Origin: a virus
Taxonomy: Duplodnaviria > Caudoviricetes
DNA length: 64,000 bases
IMG/VR virus record: IMGVR_UViG_3300010366_000012
Location: 1-64,000 of that record
Reading direction: 5' to 3' (one strand)
Shown here: positions 11,798 to 61,584 of the stretch, piece by piece
How positions within the stretch are numbered: the first letter of the stretch is position 1
Layout: each line of letters opens with the position of its first letter
Translations under genes and position numbers: made by a program
The notes under the pieces: generated by a model
The model's database searches: none
Told to the model about the DNA's origin: nothing
What the model saw: the letters and a program-made list of their open reading frames with translations, nothing else

Positions 11798-12175
11798 ATG
11801 ACTGACGCTGCTGCTGAGCAGGCACAGATCAACACGCTGGCCGACGCGATCAACGTGGTGGCTGCGCACCAGCAGGCTGCGCAAACGCAGATCCAGGCGT
11901 ACATCGCTGCGCACCCGGATGCCCCGCCTGCCGACCTGACCCCGCTGGTCAGCGCGGTCGCCTCGCTGCAGAACGCCGACACCGGCCTGGCTGCAGTGCT
12001 GCCCGCAATGCCAGATGCCCCTGCTCCCGCAGACCCGATCCCGGCTCCCCCGGACGACCCGTCTGTCCCGGTCGTGGATGCCCCGGTGGACACTGCGCCC
12101 ACCGACAGCGGCGCTGCCACTGACGGGACCACCGTGGACACTGGCCCGCCGCCAGATCAGCCAGCTTCTTTCTGA
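11798..12175 (+). CDS. Hypothetical coiled-coil protein with a Pro/Asp-rich tail
   Basis: AAGGAG RBS before ATG 11798 (an upstream GTG at ~11678 is possible); helical N-terminal half. Confidence 0.7.
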   Translation: MTDAAAEQAQINTLADAINVVAAHQQAAQTQIQAYIAAHPDAPPADLTPLVSAVASLQNADTGLAAVLPAMPDAPAPADPIPAPPDDPSVPVVDAPVDTAPTDSGAATDGTTVDTGPPPDQPASF

Positions 12176-12260
12176 CTCGCCTCTTGCGGGGCATACTGAA
12201 CGTGTTCCGCTCGACTTAGCTGGCTGTCCCCGCCCAGCGCCTCTGCGAGAGGCGGGGATC

Positions 12261-15200
12261 ATGGCACGCCCGGTCGCGCTCACACCGCTGCGGGCTGCTG
12301 CCGCGCGGCGGATGCGGCGCACCGCCCAGGCGCTGGACGAAGATCACCCTGAGACGATCGCCGGGGATCACCTGCGGGATGCCGCCCGGGTGCTGGAGCG
12401 CGGGTCCGCTGATGGAGCGAAGCGGCACCTCGATGCCGCGATGCAGCTGCTGACGCCGCAGTCCCTGCTGCGGCACGGCATCCGCGATGACGAGGGCCAC
12501 GCGACTGCCAAGCACCACATGCACGAGGTTCACCGGCATCACCTCGCGGTGCAGGACATCGAGGACACGGCGGGCAGCAACGACCGGCTGGCCGCGATGG
12601 CCCGTGCCGCCCGTGGCCAGCCCGAGCCGATGGAGCCGTTCCACCGGCAGCCGCCCGAGCTGCTCCCGGCCATCGCCGCCACTGGTGATCATGGGAATCG
12701 CGTGATCGACCTGAAGGCCACGGCCTGGGAGCGCGAAATGCGCGACCGGTATGGCAAATGGGCCGCCTCCCCCGACTTCGCGCCGATCACCTCGATGTTC
12801 GCTCCGGGCGGGCCGCACGGCTTCCGCGGCCACTCGATCGGATCGCAGCCGGAGAAGGGCTCGGTGTTCGGCCGTCACCTGAGCATGCACGAGGCTCTCG
12901 GCGCGGCCGAAGCGCTCGGCCCGGGACACCCGAAGCAGGTGGCCAGCGCGCAGATGGCCGAGCGGGCGGGCCTCCCGAAGTTCCAGCGCAAGGTGTATGA
13001 CCTGCTGCGCAAGCGCGGCCGGGGGCACTACGGCGCGCTAGTCCTGGCGCGGGCGACTACGCCCGATGTGTTCCGGGCGGGCACGTTCGCCAACAGCAGC
13101 CCGGCTGTGCAGCTGGCGTTCTGGGAGCACGAGCGGCGCAACGCGCTCGGGGAGTGGACGACCGGCGCGGACCCGCACCAGGCACCGTTCGGCTCGAACC
13201 TGCGGCCGGGCAGCCTCAACCACCTGCGCGCGATCGAGGATCTGTCCCGGCTGACCGGGTGGAACGCCACTGATGGCCGCCCGTCCTCAGACACCTTGCG
13301 CAACTCGCTGCACCACCTGGCGCACGCGCTGGCGCTGCGCGACATGAAGTCCGCCCGGGTGCATATGGCATCGGCCCGGTGGGCCGACGAGCACGAGGCG
13401 GGCGGCGCGTACACGCCTGAGCTGGACGCGATCGAGCGCTCTCTCGGCCTGGTGAACGTCCACCGGTCGGCCAGGTGGATGCGCCGCAGCGGCGGCCACG
13501 GGCCACATGCCTACGGGCGCACCGGCACGCCGCTGGAGCCGACGCGGGGCGCGATGCACGTGCCGGTCACCGAAATGATGTCCAACGCCACCGAGCTAGC
13601 CGCCCCGTTCCGCTACCGGCACGGCTGGATCAAGCTGGAGGATGCGAGCCCGCTGGACGGGCGGGTGGTCATCGCCAAGGCGGCGGGCGGCGGGCGGGTC
13701 GCGGGCGTCTATGACCACGCGACCCGGACCGTGCAGCCCCGGCACACCAAGCGGCTCCCGGTCACCGCCGTGCGGAAGGCGGGCGAAGTGATGTCTGCAG
13801 CCAAGACGCCGCGCGGCCTGGCGAAGTACCGGGCCGCGTATGGCGCATATGGCCTGGCTACCGAGCTGTCGGCACGGACAGGAGCACTTGGAACGTACAC
13901 TAAGACGTGGGTAAATGGGACTACGGCAACCGTCACGCGAGGGCTAGGCGGCACCTCGGCTCGCCGCGCAGCCATCCTTGCGCAGATTGTGGCGGCCAGG
14001 CGATCCACTGGGCTACGATCCACGGCCGGGATGGGGAGAGCCCTGAGGACTATCGGCCGCTCTGCAACCCCTGCCACATCGCCTACGACGGCGGTCACGC
14101 TGGCGAGCGCAACGGCCGGGCCAGGCTCACTTGGAACGAGGTTGCTGAGATCAGAAGGCGGTACGCGGCAGGAGAGGGTGGCTACAGCACCTTTGCCCGC
14201 GAGTACGGGATCGCCCGGTCAGCCATTGCGGACATCATCAAGCACCGTCATTGGGTTGTCCGCTAGAACTCCCTTCTTGGAGCGCACGCCCGCGCCGCGG
14301 GGCCGCCCTGGCGGGCCGGGCCTGTATCACGTCCAGGGCATGGGCCACACCGCCTACCTGCAACAGGTGGTCAAGGCGCTGATCGAGAAGCGCGGCATGC
14401 GGCCGGACAAGGCGTATGCGATTGCCCGCGCGGCGATCCGCAAGTGGGCGGCCCGGTCGAGGCATCCCGAGGTGCGCGGCGCGGCGACCCGGGCCGAGGC
14501 CGGGGAGATCGCCCGGCAGGCCCGCGCCAAGGCGCACACCGCGGCTGCCTGGGAAGTGGCGGACGTCCTGATCGAGCTGGCGTGCGAGCCGATCGAGCTT
14601 TTCAACCCCTACCATGCGCCACCCGGCGCTGGCGGCGGGCAGTTCACCACGCAGCAGGGCGCGGGCCAGGGGCAGGCCAAGGGCAGCAAGGCCCAGCGCC
14701 GGGCCAAGCTGGTCAAGCAGATCGCCAGCCTGCGGCGGCAGATCGCGGCGCTCCGGGCGCAGCTCCCGTCCACCTCGCCGCGCAAGCCTGGCAAGCCTGG
14801 CAAGTCCAAGGGCAGCACCCCGGCCAAGAAAGGCGCGGGCGCGCAGTCTGCCAAGCAGGCCAGGCAGGGCAAGCAGTCGGCTAAGACCGCGGCGCGCAAG
14901 ACCGCCTCGGTGGCCACGATCCATGCCAAGATCGCCGCGCTGCGGGCCGAGCTGCAGGCCGACATCGCCGCGCTGCGGAAGCTGGCCAACGACCAGCCCG
15001 CGATCGAGCTGATCGGGGACGGCCACGGGCACCACATCCCCGGCACGCCGGACGTCTACAGCCACGGCTGGCGGCCACTGGCCGGGACCACGATCGGGCC
15101 TAAGGGCATCCGCATTCCGGGCAGTGGCGGTGGTCCCCCAAAAGTCGCTAGCGCGGGACGGGTGCGCGCCGCGGTCAAGGCCGCCCGCATCACCAGGCCC

Positions 15201-15995
15201 GCGGTCACCCCGGCTGCCACCGCACCGGCCGCGCCCAAGCCCTCTGCGGGCGGGACCGCTGGCCTGGCTGCCGCGATGTCCTCTGGCGTGAAGAGCCGCA
15301 AGGAGCCCGGGAAGGCGTCGGTCAGCGGGTCGCAGGGCCTGCAGGGCGGCACCGAGATCGTCACGTTCAACAACGGCGCTCAGTTCGTCCACAAGGACTA
15401 CAAGTACCTGCCGCTTCCCCCGGGCCTCCAGCAACTGCAGGCGCAGAAGGAGGTGCTGGCTGCCAAGATCTCCAAGGCCCTCGGCGCGGGAGCGCCGGAC
15501 ATCATCCCCGATCCGGGCGGCAGCCCGACCAGTTTCTACATGGCGAAGATCGAGGGAGTCTCCGGCATGGAGAAGTTCAATGGCCCGGCCAGTGGCCTCC
15601 AGGGTTCCGACGCGGCGGCAGCGGAGAAGTTCTTCAACTCCCCCGAGGGCAAGAAGATCGGGCTGCTGGACATGATCATCGGGCATGCCGACCGGCACCT
15701 GGGCAACGTCATGGTCACCCCGGACGGCAAGCCAGTCCCGATCGACCACAATGACACCTGGGGCGCGGTGGACCTGAACGGCAACATGGTCACCACCAGC
15801 CCGTTTGCCGCCGAGCTAGAGAAGCAGATGAAGGCGGGCAACAGCCCGTTCAGCGTGGATGACATCGACCGGATCACCGCGCAGGTCAAGGCGCTCCAGC
15901 CCGAGTTCGGCAAGCTGAACTTCGACGCCGGGTCCAGCTACTACAGCATGACGATGAGTGAGCTGGCCCGGATCAGGAAGCTGGTGGCGAAGTGA
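12261..15995 (+). CDS. Large modular head-region polyprotein (1244 aa) with C-terminal HipA/PI3-4-kinase-like domain
   Basis: Repeated (I/V)(E/D/Q)L(A/S) module headers; 'YLQQVVKALIEKRGMRPDKAYAIARAAIRKWA' module; kinase at ~15340-15995 with FVHK, EVLAAKIS, LLDMIIGHADRHLGNVMV, IDH. Confidence 0.8.
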   Translation: MARPVALTPLRAAAARRMRRTAQALDEDHPETIAGDHLRDAARVLERGSADGAKRHLDAAMQLLTPQSLLRHGIRDDEGHATAKHHMHEVHRHHLAVQDIEDTAGSNDRLAAMARAARGQPEPMEPFHRQPPELLPAIAATGDHGNRVIDLKATAWEREMRDRYGKWAASPDFAPITSMFAPGGPHGFRGHSIGSQPEKGSVFGRHLSMHEALGAAEALGPGHPKQVASAQMAERAGLPKFQRKVYDLLRKRGRGHYGALVLARATTPDVFRAGTFANSSPAVQLAFWEHERRNALGEWTTGADPHQAPFGSNLRPGSLNHLRAIEDLSRLTGWNATDGRPSSDTLRNSLHHLAHALALRDMKSARVHMASARWADEHEAGGAYTPELDAIERSLGLVNVHRSARWMRRSGGHGPHAYGRTGTPLEPTRGAMHVPVTEMMSNATELAAPFRYRHGWIKLEDASPLDGRVVIAKAAGGGRVAGVYDHATRTVQPRHTKRLPVTAVRKAGEVMSAAKTPRGLAKYRAAYGAYGLATELSARTGALGTYTKTWVNGTTATVTRGLGGTSARRAAILAQIVAARRSTGLRSTAGMGRALRTIGRSATPATSPTTAVTLASATAGPGSLGTRLLRSEGGTRQERVATAPLPASTGSPGQPLRTSSSTVIGLSARTPFLERTPAPRGRPGGPGLYHVQGMGHTAYLQQVVKALIEKRGMRPDKAYAIARAAIRKWAARSRHPEVRGAATRAEAGEIARQARAKAHTAAAWEVADVLIELACEPIELFNPYHAPPGAGGGQFTTQQGAGQGQAKGSKAQRRAKLVKQIASLRRQIAALRAQLPSTSPRKPGKPGKSKGSTPAKKGAGAQSAKQARQGKQSAKTAARKTASVATIHAKIAALRAELQADIAALRKLANDQPAIELIGDGHGHHIPGTPDVYSHGWRPLAGTTIGPKGIRIPGSGGGPPKVASAGRVRAAVKAARITRPAVTPAATAPAAPKPSAGGTAGLAAAMSSGVKSRKEPGKASVSGSQGLQGGTEIVTFNNGAQFVHKDYKYLPLPPGLQQLQAQKEVLAAKISKALGAGAPDIIPDPGGSPTSFYMAKIEGVSGMEKFNGPASGLQGSDAAAAEKFFNSPEGKKIGLLDMIIGHADRHLGNVMVTPDGKPVPIDHNDTWGAVDLNGNMVTTSPFAAELEKQMKAGNSPFSVDDIDRITAQVKALQPEFGKLNFDAGSSYYSMTMSELARIRKLVAK
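13907..14266 (+). CDS. HNH-type homing-endonuclease-like gene nested out of frame inside 12261..15995
   Basis: CADCGGQAIHW...YRPLCNPCHIAYD zinc/HNH-like motif plus C-terminal GERNGRARLTWNEVAEIRRRY...AREYGIARSAIADII HTH typical of phage HNH endonucleases; codon use differs from flanks. Confidence 0.85.
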   Translation: MGKWDYGNRHARARRHLGSPRSHPCADCGGQAIHWATIHGRDGESPEDYRPLCNPCHIAYDGGHAGERNGRARLTWNEVAEIRRRYAAGEGGYSTFAREYGIARSAIADIIKHRHWVVR

Positions 15996-44525: not shown

Positions 44526-45020
44526 TTAGCCAGCCAGCCGGGCTGCTCGCAGCGGATTGCGCCGGGCATGCACCTCGGCCGCGTGAATCCGCACCGCGCG
44601 GTACAGGTCGCTCGGCCCCCAGGTGGCGTGGTAGTAGACCTTGCCCTCCGGGCTCACCCAGTAGATCCCCTTGCACCCGTTGCAGCTCTTGCACAGCGTG
44701 GCCAGGTTCGGCTTCCAGGTGAGCCCGCCCATGATCCACGGGGTGATGTGGTCGATCTGCAGGCCCGGCCACCTCGCCCGCTTGCCCCTGCCGACCTGCT
44801 TCGGCGCGAACCCGCACGCCACGCAGCGGTGCCGGTCGGCGGCCAGCACCTCGCGCCGCAGCCGCGCGCCTATCCGGTCATTCTTGCCGCGGACCCCGTG
44901 GCGCACCTTGGCACGCCAGCGCTGCCGCCAGCGCCGGGGCCACAGCAGCCCGCGCGGCCTGATCAGGCAGGCCAGCGTCACGTAGGCGGCCAGCACGGCC
45001 AGCACGGCATCCCCGCTCAC
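44526..45020 (-). CDS. HNH endonuclease with an N-terminal hydrophobic anchor
   Basis: RCVACG...LQIDHITPWIMGGLTWKPNLATLCKSCNGCKG; N-terminal AVLAVLAAYVTLACLI; coupled to traB. Confidence 0.85.
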   Translation of the reverse strand: MSGDAVLAVLAAYVTLACLIRPRGLLWPRRWRQRWRAKVRHGVRGKNDRIGARLRREVLAADRHRCVACGFAPKQVGRGKRARWPGLQIDHITPWIMGGLTWKPNLATLCKSCNGCKGIYWVSPEGKVYYHATWGPSDLYRAVRIHAAEVHARRNPLRAARLAG

Positions 45021-46903
45021 TTGACTGCCACCAGCCTGTCCCCCTCGGCGTCCTTGACCTTCCCGGCCTCGCGCAGCTGGGCCAGCTCTTCGGCCACGGT
45101 GCTCGGCGGCATGGTCCCCATCATCTTGCTGATCAGCTGGCCCATCGTGACCGGTGAGCGCAGCTTAGCCAGGATCAGCAGCTGCCGGGCGGCGGCGTCG
45201 ATCGCCGCGTCGTTCAGCTGGCGCACCTCGGCAGCCCCGGCCTCGACCGACTCCCTCACGTGCCGGGCCATCGACTCGTCCAGCGCAGTAATGTCCAGGC
45301 TCTCCGCGACGTCGTAGACGTCCGAGCTGGGGCCGAGGGTGTCGGTCCGCATGGTCACGCCCGGCCGCAGGTCCGCGCCGGAGCTGTAGCCCAGCCCCCA
45401 GGTCGGGCGGCCGGGGGCGAACACCTTGGGCAGGTCCACCGGGTTCTTCGGCAGGTTGACGTAGCTGCCGGTCACCTTGTCCCCGGTGCGGTGGCAGACC
45501 ACCGTCCCCGCGGCCAGGATCGAGCGGATCTCCTGCTGCTGCAGCTCAGCCAGGGACGGCACCTGGGCGGCCAGCCGGAACCTGATCCCGGCCTTGCGGC
45601 CGAGCTTCAGCATGTCGAGGATCAGCGCGGTCGCGCCATCGACGGCCAGCAGGATCGGGGCCTCGTCAATCGTGACTTCCACGATTGGCAGGTCGATCAT
45701 GAACGGGTTGAAGAATCCCATCCCCTGGCGTGGTTTCTTGCACTCACCGTCGCACCGGTCAAGGAACACGCCGTGGCGACGGCACCACCACACCGAGGCC
45801 ATGTAATCCGAGCGCGCGAACATCCCGGCGTGCAGGCCGCGCAGCCAGGCCAGGCAGTCATCAGCCCCGCAGGCATACGGCACCACGCCCTTCCAGGCGG
45901 GCAGCGCCTGGCCCATTTGCGGGTCGAGGATCACCGGGGCGATGTAGCCCGAGGCGATCCCGATGGCCAGCGAGAGGTTGATCGTGGACGTCTTGCCCGA
46001 GCCGTCCGCCCCCGCGATGATCGTGTGCTTGGTGCCATCCTCCGGCCCCTGCCAGAACGTCTCATGCACTGGCTTGCCGTCAGGGAACCGCCCGATCACC
46101 GCGAGCCCGGTGGCCGGGTCGATCGTCCCGCCGTCCCACAGCCGGGCCTGCTCCAGCGTGCCCTCGCGCAGGATGGTCAGCAGCCCGTGGTGCTTCTCGC
46201 CGGTCGGGTGGTCCTCGGCGTAGGCGGTGGTGACCGCCTTCTGGAACCCGGCTGCGATGGCAGTGGGCTTGGCCACGATCATGTCGATGTTGGTCTTGGC
46301 CCCGTCGCAGATGATCTCGTGCTGCACCCCGCCCTCGACGGGCAGCGGGTCACCGAGCCAGGCCAGCCAGCCCTGCGCCTCCGCGAGCGCGTCGAACTGC
46401 TCCCTGACCGAGCGTGGCGGCGGGGCCTTCTTGTCCGCGGGCCGCCAGCGGTATCGCTCCAGCCAGAACCCGTAGGGGAAGGCCCAGCCCAGCAGCCCGG
46501 CCGCGCTCCAGATGCCGAGCCCGGCGAACATCCCGGCCAGGCCCCAGGCCACCGCCCAGGCTGCCGCGGACTGGGTGTGCAGCCGCATGAACTTCGGCCA
46601 GTGCCGGGTTGCGGCCACCGTGACCGCGACCACGAGCAGCCCCAGCACCCCGGCCAGCTTCCAGCTCAGCCCGAGGGGCACCACCACGTACCCGGCCGCC
46701 TGCAGCGCCAGCCAGCCCAGCGGGGCGAGCTGGTGGCGGAACCGGAAGGCGCGCACCTCCGGGGGCGGCACCCCGGCCAGCCGGGCCTGCGCCTCGGCAA
46801 TCGCCTGCAGGTGCTTGGTGCCCCGCTTGCCGTCCACGATGAGGACCGGCCCCGGCGCGGCCTTGCCGCCCCGGGACCGGGCCTTCTGCAGCTGCCTGGC
46901 CAA
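45017..46903 (-). CDS. traB: TraB/FtsK-SpoIIIE-like conjugative dsDNA translocase
   Basis: N-terminal TM helices; Walker A IIAGADGSGKT; Walker B VTIDEAP; 'KLGRKAGIRF.LAAQ' FtsK motif; C-terminal winged helix. Confidence 0.88.
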   Translation of the reverse strand: MARQLQKARSRGGKAAPGPVLIVDGKRGTKHLQAIAEAQARLAGVPPPEVRAFRFRHQLAPLGWLALQAAGYVVVPLGLSWKLAGVLGLLVVAVTVAATRHWPKFMRLHTQSAAAWAVAWGLAGMFAGLGIWSAAGLLGWAFPYGFWLERYRWRPADKKAPPPRSVREQFDALAEAQGWLAWLGDPLPVEGGVQHEIICDGAKTNIDMIVAKPTAIAAGFQKAVTTAYAEDHPTGEKHHGLLTILREGTLEQARLWDGGTIDPATGLAVIGRFPDGKPVHETFWQGPEDGTKHTIIAGADGSGKTSTINLSLAIGIASGYIAPVILDPQMGQALPAWKGVVPYACGADDCLAWLRGLHAGMFARSDYMASVWWCRRHGVFLDRCDGECKKPRQGMGFFNPFMIDLPIVEVTIDEAPILLAVDGATALILDMLKLGRKAGIRFRLAAQVPSLAELQQQEIRSILAAGTVVCHRTGDKVTGSYVNLPKNPVDLPKVFAPGRPTWGLGYSSGADLRPGVTMRTDTLGPSSDVYDVAESLDITALDESMARHVRESVEAGAAEVRQLNDAAIDAAARQLLILAKLRSPVTMGQLISKMMGTMPPSTVAEELAQLREAGKVKDAEGDRLVAVK

Positions 46904-59075: not shown

Positions 59076-59396
59076 TTAGTTCTGCTGGCCGGTCAGGTAC
59101 TCGTCCCAGCTCCGGCCGCTGGCGATCACGCTGGCGTAGATCCGGGCGTCCTCGGGGCTGCCGCCCCCGGCCACCCAGCTCATGCCCGCCTCGGCGTAGA
59201 TCTCGGCGCGCTGCTCAGCCTGCAGCTGTGCGCTCACCGCGTAGCAGGCCCGGACCGCGGCCACGCTCTCGTGCCGGATCGTCCAGCTCAGATCGCGCGG
59301 GTGGTTGCCGCAGCGGATGCCAGTCTCGGTGTCCTCCGGCAGCCCGAAGCTGTCGTAGTTGTAGCCGCCCTGCTCGTCCCGCTCCAGGTCGATCAT
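59076..59396 (-). CDS. Hypothetical protein
   Basis: 106 aa; promoter upstream. Confidence 0.75.
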   Translation of the reverse strand: MIDLERDEQGGYNYDSFGLPEDTETGIRCGNHPRDLSWTIRHESVAAVRACYAVSAQLQAEQRAEIYAEAGMSWVAGGGSPEDARIYASVIASGRSWDEYLTGQQN

Positions 59397-59437
59397 GTCT
59401 GCCTGTCTCCCTTGCCTTGTCCCTGTCTTACGGCTCC

Positions 59438-59470
59438 AGTCTACTTGGCAGAATCCATTCTGTCAACAGT
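59438..59470 (-). promoter_or_regulatory. SigA/HrdB-type promoter with an inverted-repeat operator
   Basis: TTGACA (59466-59461), 17 nt, TAGACT (59443-59438); inverted repeat TTGGCAGAAT-CC-ATTCTGTCAA. Confidence 0.8.
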
Positions 59471-59482
59471 CTGGCCGGGCTG

Positions 59483-59746
59483 CTATTTCGCACTCCGGGG
59501 GATGTAGCTCAGCCAGGTGACGCCATCGTTGAGCATCGACGTCATCGCCTCGCGGGTCATCACGGCGATCTCGGTGCGCTCGCCCGGGTACAGCTCGTGG
59601 TCCTCGTCCGGCGTCCAGCTGAACGAGCCCGCGCGCAGCTTCTCCGGCTCGCGGATGCGGTACAGCGCGAAGGTATGCAGGTTCTCGCCCTTGTCGGCGT
59701 CCTGCTCCGGCTCGAACCGGTAGGTGGTCTTGATCCGTCGTTCCAT
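59483..59746 (-). CDS. Hypothetical protein
   Basis: 87 aa; extended SD AGGAGCAGGCA. Confidence 0.7.
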   Translation of the reverse strand: MERRIKTTYRFEPEQDADKGENLHTFALYRIREPEKLRAGSFSWTPDEDHELYPGERTEIAVMTREAMTSMLNDGVTWLSYIPRSAK

Positions 59747-59765
59747 TGCCTGCTCCTGTGCCTTG

Positions 59766-60539
59766 TCGGTGGTGCGCTCTCCCTGGACCGGGCTGGCGGT
59801 GCAGAGGTCGTCGGGGGTTGGCTATCCCGCTGAGGTGCGTGCCAGTGTCAGGTTGCCCCGCCTGCCCGCATGCCGCGGGCGGTTCGGAGCCCGGCTAGCG
59901 AGCGCCGGGGCAGCTGCCCTCAGTTCGGGCTGCGGCCAGCCCCCCGGGCAACGCGATGCCGGTGGCGGCTATGCCGTCCGCAGCCCTCCCCCGGCCAAGC
60001 CGTGGCCGGTATGCCCTCTTAATCTCCGTGAGTCCTCACGGCCAGTGGGGCCTAGCTTCGGGAGTGATCCCGAACTGAAGGCAGCTGCCGAGAGGATCGA
60101 GCTGCTGGCTGCGTGCGTACACACTGACTGCCCGGCGTCTGTGACCGGCCACCAGCTAAGGGCGGTGCCCGCTCGATCGTCTCGGTGAGGGGGCCAGGGG
60201 ATACCGCACCCCTGCCCTTGGGCGGGGGCTCTATCAGCCCTTGCGGGCTGGCGGCGACTTAGCTCCTTAGCAACCTGCCCCGCGCTCGCGTTCTCCCGCG
60301 GCCAGCAGGTGGGCCGGTGTTTTCCCTGGTCCCCTCAGGCGAGAGAGCCGGACCCGTGTTCCGCACGTTAACCCCCGATTACCGCCCCGCCGTTGCGGGC
60401 TCTCGCAGCAGTGCCTGCCCCTGGCTGGGTTAGCCATCCGAAGATGCAAGGTTCCCCAGTGCGGCGCGCTTACCCTTTCATCGGGTGCCGTACCGCCGTT
60501 CTGACGGTCCGGCTCTCTCGCTGTCCTCTATGCTGTTGT
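59766..60539 (-). ncRNA. Candidate large structured non-coding RNA (~780 nt)
   Basis: No credible ORF; promoter directly upstream; long stems 60506-60521/60339-60354 (16 bp perfect), 60069-60089/59909-59929 (21 bp) and 60088-60102/60171-60185; UUCG and GCAA tetraloop hairpins on the - strand. Confidence 0.65.
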
Positions 60540-60545
60540 ACTTAC

Positions 60546-60579
60546 AGCTTAGTCGGTGAATTGGGATTCTGTCAACAGT
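60546..60579 (-). promoter_or_regulatory. SigA/HrdB-type promoter carrying both repeated motifs
   Basis: TTGACA (60575-60570), 18 nt, TAAGCT (60551-60546); TGTAAGTACA overlaps the -10 and start region. Confidence 0.8.
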
Positions 60580-60817
60580 TGCGGTCCTTTCCAGGTATGA
60601 CCTGCGTCACACCCTGCCGCGGCCGAGCCCAGCGGCGCTGGCCGCGGCCCTCGCCCTCGCGGTTGTCCCGCGCCCGGCTGCCCATGCCCGGCCGTGGCCG
60701 GAACACCGGACGCCGCTGGCTGATCCAGTCTGTCCCGTTGTGCTTCCGCTGGTGCGCCTCGAAGAGCGCATCGACCACCGGACGATTGCAGTCCGGGCAG
60801 GTGATGTACCCCTTCAC
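60572..60817 (-). CDS. Small C2H2-like zinc-finger protein
   Basis: CPDC...EAHQRKH. Confidence 0.55.
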   Translation of the reverse strand: MKGYITCPDCNRPVVDALFEAHQRKHNGTDWISQRRPVFRPRPGMGSRARDNREGEGRGQRRWARPRQGVTQVIPGKDRNC

Positions 60818-60823
60818 CCATTA

Positions 60824-60958
60824 TCACGCGGCCACAATCTCGATGTCGTAGCCCTGGCTCTCCACCAGCTCGGCCAGCGCGTCGATCTCGAACGCGGTCC
60901 AGGTGTCCTGGCCGTCCGCGTCCTCCCAGTAGGCCCCGTCCGCGATTATCTGAAACAT
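60824..60958 (-). CDS. Small acidic protein (44 aa)
   Basis: Read by hand: MFQIIADGAYWEDADGQDTWTAFEIDALAELVESQGYDIEIVAA; extended SD and promoter upstream. Confidence 0.7.
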   Translation of the reverse strand: MFQIIADGAYWEDADGQDTWTAFEIDALAELVESQGYDIEIVAA

Positions 60959-60980
60959 CTGCCTTCTCCTTGTCCGTGCC

Positions 60981-61019
60981 TTCTGTCAACAGTCTACGTT
61001 ATCGCAGCTCAGAAGGCAA
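60981..61019 (-). promoter_or_regulatory. Promoter with the ACTGTTGACAGAA motif overlapping -10/+1
   Basis: TTGCCT (61019-61014), 17 nt, TAGACT (60996-60991); motif at 60981-60993. Confidence 0.7.
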
Positions 61020-61308
61020 ATCGCCGCCCGGCCCCAAACGCCTAGGAGGGACCGGGCGGCTCAGCCTGGCCGGGGCAGCAAACTACGTTCCCGAGAGTCG
61101 CCTGAATCTCTGACAGCATGTCCGCTGTACTTGGTTGGTTGTTAGCTTGGCCAGGCTGTACTGACAGCGTAGCCTGGTCGATGCACCGCGTAAGCGGGGC
61201 AGGGCCATCAGCCCGGCCGCGCCTCTCGTGGTCAACCGTGAAAAGCGCCAGGCACCTGGCGGCTGCCGGGGGTTCCCGCTCTAGCGCTCGGGAGCCCCCG
61301 GTCACGTT

Positions 61309-61584
61309 TCACCGGTTCGGCCCGCCGATCGACGGACCCTGGTAGACCACCCGGACCGGGGCGTCCTCCCCGGTGACTGCCACCCGCTGCAGTGGGCGCA
61401 GCGGCCCCGGCCCTCCGGTATCCCACGGGCGGTGCCTTCCCTGGCCGCGCCATGCCGAATCCAGGCCGTTAGGCCGCGGCGGCTGGCACATCCGCTGCGG
61501 GCATGTCGTCCAGCCGGGACAGCAGCCCAGGCAGTGCTTGCCGTCCGGGTCGCAGGACGGGTGCTCGGGCAGCTCGTCAGGCAC
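61309..61584 (-). CDS. Cys-rich hypothetical protein
   Basis: C..DGKHCLGCC...C...C; start overlaps the upstream gene. Confidence 0.45.
   Translation of the reverse strand: MPDELPEHPSCDPDGKHCLGCCPGWTTCPQRMCQPPRPNGLDSAWRGQGRHRPWDTGGPGPLRPLQRVAVTGEDAPVRVVYQGPSIGGPNR

Follow-up and report, generated by a model that had tools for sequence, protein, structure and literature searches.

A probable modular, structured non-coding RNA in the early region of an uncultivated soil phage

The DNA analysed here, referred to below as the window, comprises 64,000 nucleotides and is the first 64 kb of a 75-kb IMG/VR soil virus record (70% G+C, 96% complete). In the right arm of this phage genome, where the transcribed orientation is the minus strand, the stretch from about 59766 to 60540 is non-coding. 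It is organised as a string of helix-closed modules and consists of a leader, D1a, D1b, D2, D3 and an unstructured tail. Three of its modules (D1b, D2 and D3) have homologues in the same early slot of related phages, module D3 shows covariation, and the minus strand is the sense strand. We propose, with modest confidence, that the stretch specifies an early, modular, structured non-coding RNA, the product of a promoter-headed unit on the minus strand. That the function resides at the level of RNA appears likely, and action in trans rather than as a cis leader is mildly favoured. Transcription, processing, stability and the action in trans are what we infer from the features described below.

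The spread of GC content between codon positions does not exceed 0.15 over about 59760-60560, compared with 0.35-0.53 in the flanking minus-strand genes. Codon periodicity is absent from 59766-60540 in any frame, while the real genes of this genome reach GC3 values of 0.85-1.0. In an independent 71.7-kb ENA assembly of the same phage, 1.08 kb is without a called gene at the RNA locus. The -35 element of the promoter heading the stretch is contained in a 13-nt motif, ACTGTTGACAGAA, the core of which occurs in 10 copies in the 64-kb window against 0.48 expected, and transcription would start near 60540. When nine promoter cassettes of the right arm were aligned, eight were found to have a CAAGGAG-type ribosome-binding leader and an ATG within ~40 nt. 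The sole exception is the cassette at 60569, in which ~780 nt free of genes is followed by the standard leader and the ATG of an 87-aa gene. The ORF-free stretch behind a consensus promoter (TTGACA-18-TAAGCT), to which an earlier note on this DNA had drawn attention, is thus borne out by the flat codon-position GC and the promoter sequence. No terminator-like site was found on the minus strand between the RNA and the next gene. The features of the locus are listed here in the direction of transcription.

60572-60817, minus strand: upstream gene of an 81-aa protein with a CPxC...H...H (CxxC) N-terminus and an arginine-rich tail; GC3 0.85.
60547-60581, minus strand: early promoter, with -35 TTGACA (60576-60571) supplied by motif ACTGTTGACAGAA, an 18-nt spacer and -10 TAAGCT (60552-60547).
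60513-60541, minus strand: conserved 5' leader GUAAGUACAACAGCAUAGAGGACAG, recognised by its identity to relatives.
60339-60521, minus strand: module D1a, 183 nt, closed by a perfect 16-bp helix and holding the UUCG hairpin.
60186-60337, minus strand: module D1b, closed by UGAGGGG.CCAGGG / CCCUGG.CCCCUCA and holding a CUAAGG-A-CUAAG motif and the GCAA hairpin.
60088-60185, minus strand: module D2, closed by a 15-bp stem with one mismatch, with two small hairpins inside.
59909-60089, minus strand: module D3 (the '21-bp stem' domain), with an 18-bp P1, a local hairpin, and unpaired GGCAUACC and GGAGGG.
59747-59908, minus strand: 3' tail, z = 0, ending in a standard ribosome-binding leader, CAAGGCACAGGAGCAGGCA, ahead of the next gene.
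59483-59746, minus strand: downstream gene of 87 aa; GC3 0.93; its sole database match is itself.

The ribosome-binding part of the tail matches the leaders of the other promoter cassettes. Two kinds of cassette can be distinguished between 53909 and 63970 on the minus strand. In the majority, the -10 is followed by GGCAAGG...CAAGGAGAAGGCA and the ATG. The second kind uses TAAGCUGUAAGUACAACAGCA and comprises the RNA unit and some protein genes of related contigs (L131 at 1222 and L132 at 7091).

Inverted repeats of 21 nt (59909-59929/60069-60089, 95%), 16 nt (60339-60354/60506-60521, perfect) and 14 nt (59927-59940/59973-59986) are present in the region. The stem 60088-60102/60171-60185 and the UUCG and GCAA hairpins are visible both in the sequence and in the predicted folds. 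All the long stems that had been described previously (16 bp, 21 bp, 15 bp with a mismatch, and the nested 59927/59986 stem) were found again, and the local hairpins CAUC-UUCG-GAUG and CAGCCC-GCAA-GGGCUG were confirmed. For the whole region the folding z-value is -3.5 on the minus strand and -2.6 on the plus strand. The region was also split at the long closing helices, with 150 dinucleotide shuffles for each piece; the sense-strand z-values are -5.95 for D3, -3.3 for D1a, -2.4 for D1b, -1.4 for D2 and 0 for the tail, compared with a mean of -0.76 (sd 1.0, minimum -2.4) in 20 coding windows used as control. The excess structure is confined to D1a and D3, with D1b and D2 within or near background, and the last ~140 nt are without it. 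The earlier description of one highly structured RNA of ~780 nt therefore holds as far as its non-coding, structured character is concerned, but the structure is a chain of independently closed modules and its last ~140 nt are unstructured. The proposal of a structured transcript unit on the minus strand agrees with the present results, the sense strand being fixed by a conserved U.G pair in D3, in line with the direction of the promoter.

Relatives of the locus were reached via the 106-aa gene located two genes downstream of the RNA, which has matches in JGI soil metagenomes; a 127-aa gene beside those matches led to further related contigs. Homologous RNA units in L130, L132, L134, L138, L139 and L143 begin with the same promoter and leader as that of the window. 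In these relatives the gene order is unchanged, and the promoter and the leader GUAAGUACAACAGCACAGAGG are followed by 0.45-0.85 kb without genes. The slot is syntenic, with the 106-aa gene downstream in all relatives and a homologue of the 81-aa zinc-binding-type, arginine-rich (Zn/Arg) protein ahead of it in L130 (1418-1621) and L139 (2384-2617). The window has the same arrangement: a promoter of the form CTGTTGACAGAA-(17/18)-TA(A/G)(G/T)CT, a leader GUA(A/G)GUACAACAGCA(C/U)AGAGG and the 106-aa gene downstream.

The leader of the window is 90-95% identical to those of L130, L132, L134, L138 and L143, and 77% identical over 39 nt to that of L139. Its GAGGAC part corresponds to a strand of the domain 1 closing helix in the relatives. 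Module D1b has 68% identity over 159 nt to domain 1 of L132 and L143, and the indels are the size of hairpins; the window has in addition the CAGCCC-GCAA-GGGCUG hairpin, and the hairpin that follows it is extended. The predicted closed architecture is the same in both, and in the closing helix an A-U pair is exchanged for G-C. Module D1a occupies an exact break in the L132 alignment, which resumes directly afterwards, and D1a is therefore an inserted helix-closed domain relative to L132 and L143. No homologue of D1a was found. A 51-nt piece of D2 shares 82% identity with a sub-module of L130 (1813-1862), and in our reading of the folds the pairing of its second hairpin survives changes from G-C to U-A and from C-G to U.G. 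A pseudoknot between AGCUAAG and CUUAGCU, which had been suggested for this region, was dropped: the pairing is not conserved among L132, L143 and L139, which carry the CUAAG motif and lack its CUUAG partner.

Module D3 is homologous to the 3' module of L138 (3303-3482), L145 (137-299) and L134 (129-319). This relationship was missed by BLAST, and the L134 copy was recovered by an nhmmer profile built from the other three sequences, which gives independent support. In the alignment of four sequences 93% of the cells are paired. Compensatory changes occur in 16 of the 45 pairs, against 6.2 +/- 1.7 in shuffles (0/500) and 1-5 in slid controls, and in P1 seven of the 18 pairs covary; alignments made with MAFFT and RNAalifold are biased towards pairing, and covariation was assessed on small alignments of three or four sequences per module from few soil studies. 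The covariation among homologues that the earlier note had called for is thus found in the domain of the 21-bp stem. A U.G pair is kept in three of the four sequences and is G-C in the fourth. Since this pair would be A.C on the plus strand, the minus strand is the sense strand, in agreement with the promoter.

The unpaired motifs GGCAUACC and GGAGGG are invariant across the four sequences. In the consensus, the outer three pairs of the 21-bp stem of the window go instead to the local hairpin and a terminal helix. The 5' strand of D3 has two alternative pairings possible in all four sequences. A switch between 60057-60074 and the 21-bp stem, raised earlier, is accordingly possible but not required, as the consensus is an 18-bp P1 with a local hairpin. 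The window segment 59905-60093 on the minus strand scores 172.6 bits against the D3 covariance model R1, the window sequence being one of the four on which R1 was trained, and it shows the 18-bp P1 with U.G, the local hairpin, GGCAUACC, GGAGGG and the terminal GGG...CCC helix. No further copy of D3 was detected by R1 in 0.82 Mb of related DNA, and a pattern search of IMG/VR for D3 gave one chance match, which was rejected by R1.

The element shared by the relatives is a core RNA of ~320 nt with a lead-in ACAACUGAACAGUGG, a closing helix P1 of 26 bp, and the motifs GAGCGAA.C.GRAGAAC and CCGGGGAGG. Its positions are as follows.

Core RNA of the relatives: L130 2160-2517; L139 3062-3472; L132 2064-2400; L143 642-975; L138 2979-3296; also in L146/L147.

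In five core sequences, 25 of the 91 predicted pairs show a compensatory change, against 11.2 +/- 2.3 in shuffles (0/500) and 1-5 in slid controls. A profile of the core (nhmmer --max) matches L130, L132, L134, L138, L139, L143, L144, L146 and L147, and it has no match up to E = 10 in the 75-kb genome of the phage of the window. In L146/L147 the core lies directly behind a promoter. The tRNA-Ala (cgc) of L130 and the tRNA-Glu (ctc) of L139 each start at the nucleotide right after the core. A motif ACAAC(U)G(A/C)ACAG was observed as a linker ahead of the core, and also ahead of D3 in L138 and L145. What follows the RNA differs between the phages. It is the 87-aa gene in the window, the 127-aa gene in L132, L143 and L144, and a different gene in L146/L147; in L130 and L139 a tRNA adjoins the RNA at 0 nt, and in L134 and L145 the RNA is followed by the next promoter. 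The window holds an atypical member of the family without the core, the comparative depth of the family is thin, and the core of the relatives is probably the better target for defining it.

A natural variant is provided by soil run X2, from a second soil study, whose contigs belong to a near-identical variant of the phage. Over 688 nt of the RNA there are no substitutions, compared with 36 in 1456 nt of the flanks (2.5%), a rate at which about 17 would be expected in the RNA. The RNA of X2 carries two 1-nt deletions, both in the tail. Its identity could be due to a recent recombinational exchange instead of selection. The variant lacks 59938-60081, which is the interior of D3, and an 8-bp palindromic stem is left there; in the fold of the shortened sequence the helices of D1b and D2 are unchanged. 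These data are assembled contigs, in which rare variants are invisible. Since the phage is without the family core and X2 is without most of D3, no single module of the window is shown to be needed.

A contig of X2 also joins 59489 to 59747, removing the 87-aa ORF almost exactly from ATG to stop, and the RNA unit runs into the next promoter without a protein gene of its own. The 87-aa gene is not an obligate partner of the RNA. Between the near-identical phages of X2 and the window, this gene presents a clean single-gene presence/absence polymorphism. Another, more distant contig of X1/X2 (X1 being the other soil run with the locus) shares 59777-59845, with 9 differences, and 60521-60555.

The stop codon of the upstream 81-aa ORF overlaps the promoter motif of the RNA. 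This gene was left uncalled by the gene callers on the 71.7-kb ENA assembly, and no Pfam family was found for the protein. In an ENA contig the Zn/Arg protein has a homologue of 75% identity, and a gene-free gap of 668 nt lies one gene downstream of it. The protein could be an RNA-binding partner; as an obligate partner it was rejected, since the parts of L132 and L138 that were examined do not contain it. None of the neighbouring genes could be assigned a function with Pfam or PHROGs.

Several further features of the genome were observed. A second gene-free, hairpin-rich stretch of ~300 nt lies at 60995-61310 on the minus strand, just upstream of a promoter at 60982-60992. It is ~70% identical to L130 820-974. 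At its end a GC hairpin of 13 bp (61023-61060) precedes a run weakly enriched in U, and the stretch may be a terminator or a further small RNA module. On the plus strand, a virion-region protein of 1326 aa (12015-15995) has a short Pfam match to PI3_PI4_kinase at residues 1214-1249 (E = 1.5e-6, just above the cut-off), which is unexpected in the structural arm of a phage. A 628-aa protein on the minus strand (45017-46903) has a sub-threshold match to FtsK/SpoIIIE (E = 0.0013).

Searches of the catalogued RNAs gave no match, which the earlier note had named in advance as support for novelty. Rfam 15 had no match over the whole window at gathering thresholds, GOLLD, ROOL, OLE, raiA and HEARO included; with relaxed filters, 59300-61000 matched only miRNA and snoRNA models at chance level (11-18 bits versus thresholds of 50-80). 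In the homologous loci the only Rfam match was to tRNA. As had been remarked for tmRNA, ARAGORN found neither tRNA nor tmRNA in the window or the 75-kb genome, and there was no match to the Rfam tRNA model up to E = 10. Among GenBank phages, neither the DNA of the region nor the proteins of the flanking ORFs tested had a match, and the RNA units of the relatives matched these phages only via tRNA or by chance 30-mers. In IMG/VR, queries with the 87-aa, terminase-region and 342-aa sequences gave no relatives. The portal query gave 80 contigs, and the nine near-complete relatives obtained through the portal (55-72% identity) shared none of the 42-62 kb arm and had no DNA match. The leader pattern had two chance matches in IMG/VR, in low-GC phages. 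Patterns of the leader and the core found nothing in reference prokaryote genomes, that is, no prophage copy and no host clue. A 30-mer from the loose end of the X1/X2 contig had no match. The sequencing runs listed with the locus were the two DNA soil runs X1 and X2, with no RNA run among them.

The nature of this locus may be considered at the level of protein, of DNA or of RNA. Coding density is high in phage genomes, the genes nearby are small orphans, and a mechanical ORF of 154 aa is present on the plus strand; remnants of early genes or an unusually read gene might therefore be suspected. Such a decayed or unrecognised coding sequence is extremely improbable in view of the lack of codon-position GC periodicity in any frame over 800 nt, of homologue indels that are hairpin-sized and not in-frame multiples of three, and of the position of both 1-nt deletions of X2 in the tail. 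Inverted repeats acting as DNA, whether as an origin, as a protein-binding or recombination site or as miniature inverted-repeat insertions, would make the RNA structure incidental. Such repeats would agree with the negative z-values of both strands, the plus strand folding almost as well overall, with the similar size of D1a (183 bp) and D3 (181 bp) and their boundaries formed by 16- and 21-nt inverted repeats, and with the presence or absence of each of the two between close relatives. However, G.U and U.G pairs are preserved on a single strand, both D3 and the core of the relatives show compensatory changes, and the unpaired motifs inside D3 are conserved. The inverted repeats expected of a miniature element are present, but D1a and D3 are single-copy in the genome, no target-site duplication was seen at their flanks and the interior covaries; the deletion in X2 takes the interior of D3 and not the whole repeat-bounded unit. 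The base composition of the region is that of the genome, and no iterons or direct repeats were found there. We regard a function of the locus as DNA as very unlikely. A function of the RNA is likely because readings at the level of DNA or of the opposite strand leave the one-sided wobble pairs, the compensatory changes and the conserved unpaired motifs unexplained.

If the function is that of an RNA, it could be exerted in cis or in trans. A long cis-acting 5' leader, which might shield the 5' end from RNases, supply cistron-separating processing stems as in T7 or form a sensor-like switch controlling the early genes, would fit several observations. No terminator separates the RNA from the next gene, the tail ends in a standard ribosome-binding leader, and a gene lies within about 30 nt of the RNA end in L132, L143, L144, L146 and L138, several relatives having a ribosome-binding site close behind the RNA. 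The closing helices of 16-26 bp are near-perfect and may resemble RNase III substrates, and the 5' strand of D3 has its two alternative pairings in all four sequences. The giant regulatory leader considered in the earlier note is nevertheless less likely, as the downstream gene varies, is absent in X2 and is replaced by an abutting tRNA in two relatives (L130 and L139), where RNase P would be able to sever the RNA from the downstream part; in L134 and L145 the next promoter marks the end of the unit. The size of 0.5-0.8 kb, the conserved unpaired motifs and the shuffling of modules exceed what stabilising a 5' end would need. With regard to riboswitches, T-boxes and attenuators, there is no constant downstream gene family and no terminator, and the ribosome-binding site lies in the unstructured tail. 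A leader acting in cis thus seems somewhat unlikely. Stable RNAs are cut from polycistronic precursors in a helix-closed form. Action in trans is favoured over a leader because what follows the RNA varies, X2 loses the next gene and the domains are closed by helices of 13-26 bp.

For the structured RNA that we prefer, the following course of events may be proposed. The host RNA polymerase would initiate at the consensus early promoter near 60540 and transcribe the minus strand. Over its first ~640 nt the transcript would fold into D1a, D1b, D2 and D3 behind the conserved leader, and the last ~140 nt would serve as a plain leader for the next gene. The domains would be drawn from a repertoire of RNA modules which related soil actinophages combine differently in the same early slot, where in the relatives they would sit beside the ~320-nt core RNA and sometimes a tRNA. 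The product may be one stable structured RNA, or it may be divided into several by cleavage at the long closing helices and in the single-stranded linkers. Its action would be exerted in trans during early infection; most plausibly, it would bind or sequester a factor of the host or the phage, as proposed for other large tRNA-linked phage RNAs.

A more far-reaching idea, which we consider unlikely, is that the slot holds a toolkit of swappable, self-contained domains excised from the early transcript as stable RNAs, which might for instance decoy RNases or RNA-targeting defences of the host, or form the units of a higher-order RNA or RNP assembly resembling the cages of GOLLD and ROOL. The upstream arginine-rich zinc-ribbon protein might then be a partner. 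If this were true, the module content would be a fast-evolving determinant of infection success.

Few large structured phage RNAs, such as GOLLD and ROOL, have been catalogued, and high-GC soil actinophages have contributed almost none of them. The locus and its relatives define an uncatalogued family whose unusual trait is modularity, in that close relatives differ by gain, loss and recombination of helix-closed domains, each of which retains its fold. This amounts to a natural experiment on which RNA domains matter. The compact, independently folding, GC-rich domains are usable for structural work. If these RNAs act on host factors, they would represent a new layer of early phage-host conflict in phages that are uncultivated.

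It is useful to compare the RNA with known systems. The vrRNA of VIPR consists of runs of 9-16 GGY-NN pentamers followed by a conserved tail, in units of ~100 nt (bioRxiv 10.64898/2026.04.26.720920). It is likewise a phage-encoded non-coding RNA, and the genome studied here has, past the end of the window at 71800-75011, a 3.2-kb non-coding tract with strict 5-nt periodicity (lag-5 autocorrelation 0.41), reading NNGCC on the plus strand and GGC-NN on the minus strand, which is the signature of VIPR vrRNA arrays. With its 3.2 kb this tract is far longer than the ~100-nt units (10.64898/2026.04.26.720920). The RNA region itself has no run of three or more GGY-NN units on either strand, and its lag-5 autocorrelation is -0.05, against 0.41 in the terminal array. 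A link between the RNA region and the VIPR-like array was rejected, since they share neither sequence nor periodicity.

The T4 tRNA cluster yields two stable RNAs (species 1 and 2), small to medium-sized structured RNAs of unknown function, co-transcribed with tRNAs from an early/middle promoter and processed by the host. The relatives L130 and L139, in which a tRNA starts right after the core RNA, resemble this arrangement. However, there is no sequence relation, the phage of the window has no tRNA, and the modules described here are larger (90-330 nt) and far more GC-rich. In the early mRNA of T7 and in rRNA operons, a functional unit of the polycistronic transcript is flanked by long RNase III stems. 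All the modules described here likewise have a closing helix, of 13-26 bp, at which cleavage may be predicted by analogy. The RNase III sites of T7 are hairpins of ~60 nt with nothing conserved inside, whereas the 90-330 nt enclosed here carry conserved helices and unpaired motifs.

The closest likeness is to the large phage RNAs GOLLD and ROOL, which are often found beside tRNAs and whose function is unknown (PMC12286853). In GOLLD the 3' part is conserved and the 5' part variable, and ROOL, a large structured RNA found in phages and prophages and often close to tRNA islands, has no known protein partner or function (PMC12286853). Like GOLLD (RF01998), a multi-domain phage and prophage RNA of 0.6-0.8 kb, the present family has a variable 5' domain, a conserved core and abutting tRNAs. 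It differs in having no match to the GOLLD covariance model at any threshold in the window or the homologous loci and in coming from high-GC soil actinophages, and the RNA of the window is without the family core. With ROOL (RF03087) it shares the character of a large structured phage RNA; there is no Rfam match, and ROOL is a single compact fold with pseudoknots, whereas a chain of swapped, separately closed modules is found here. The suggestion of an undescribed large RNA class can accordingly be retained in so far as no catalogued family fits, although the general kind, represented by GOLLD and ROOL, is already known, and the window is without the core that its relatives carry. Judged by sequence and predicted structure, the locus and its relatives represent a new RNA family of the GOLLD and ROOL kind that is a member of neither.
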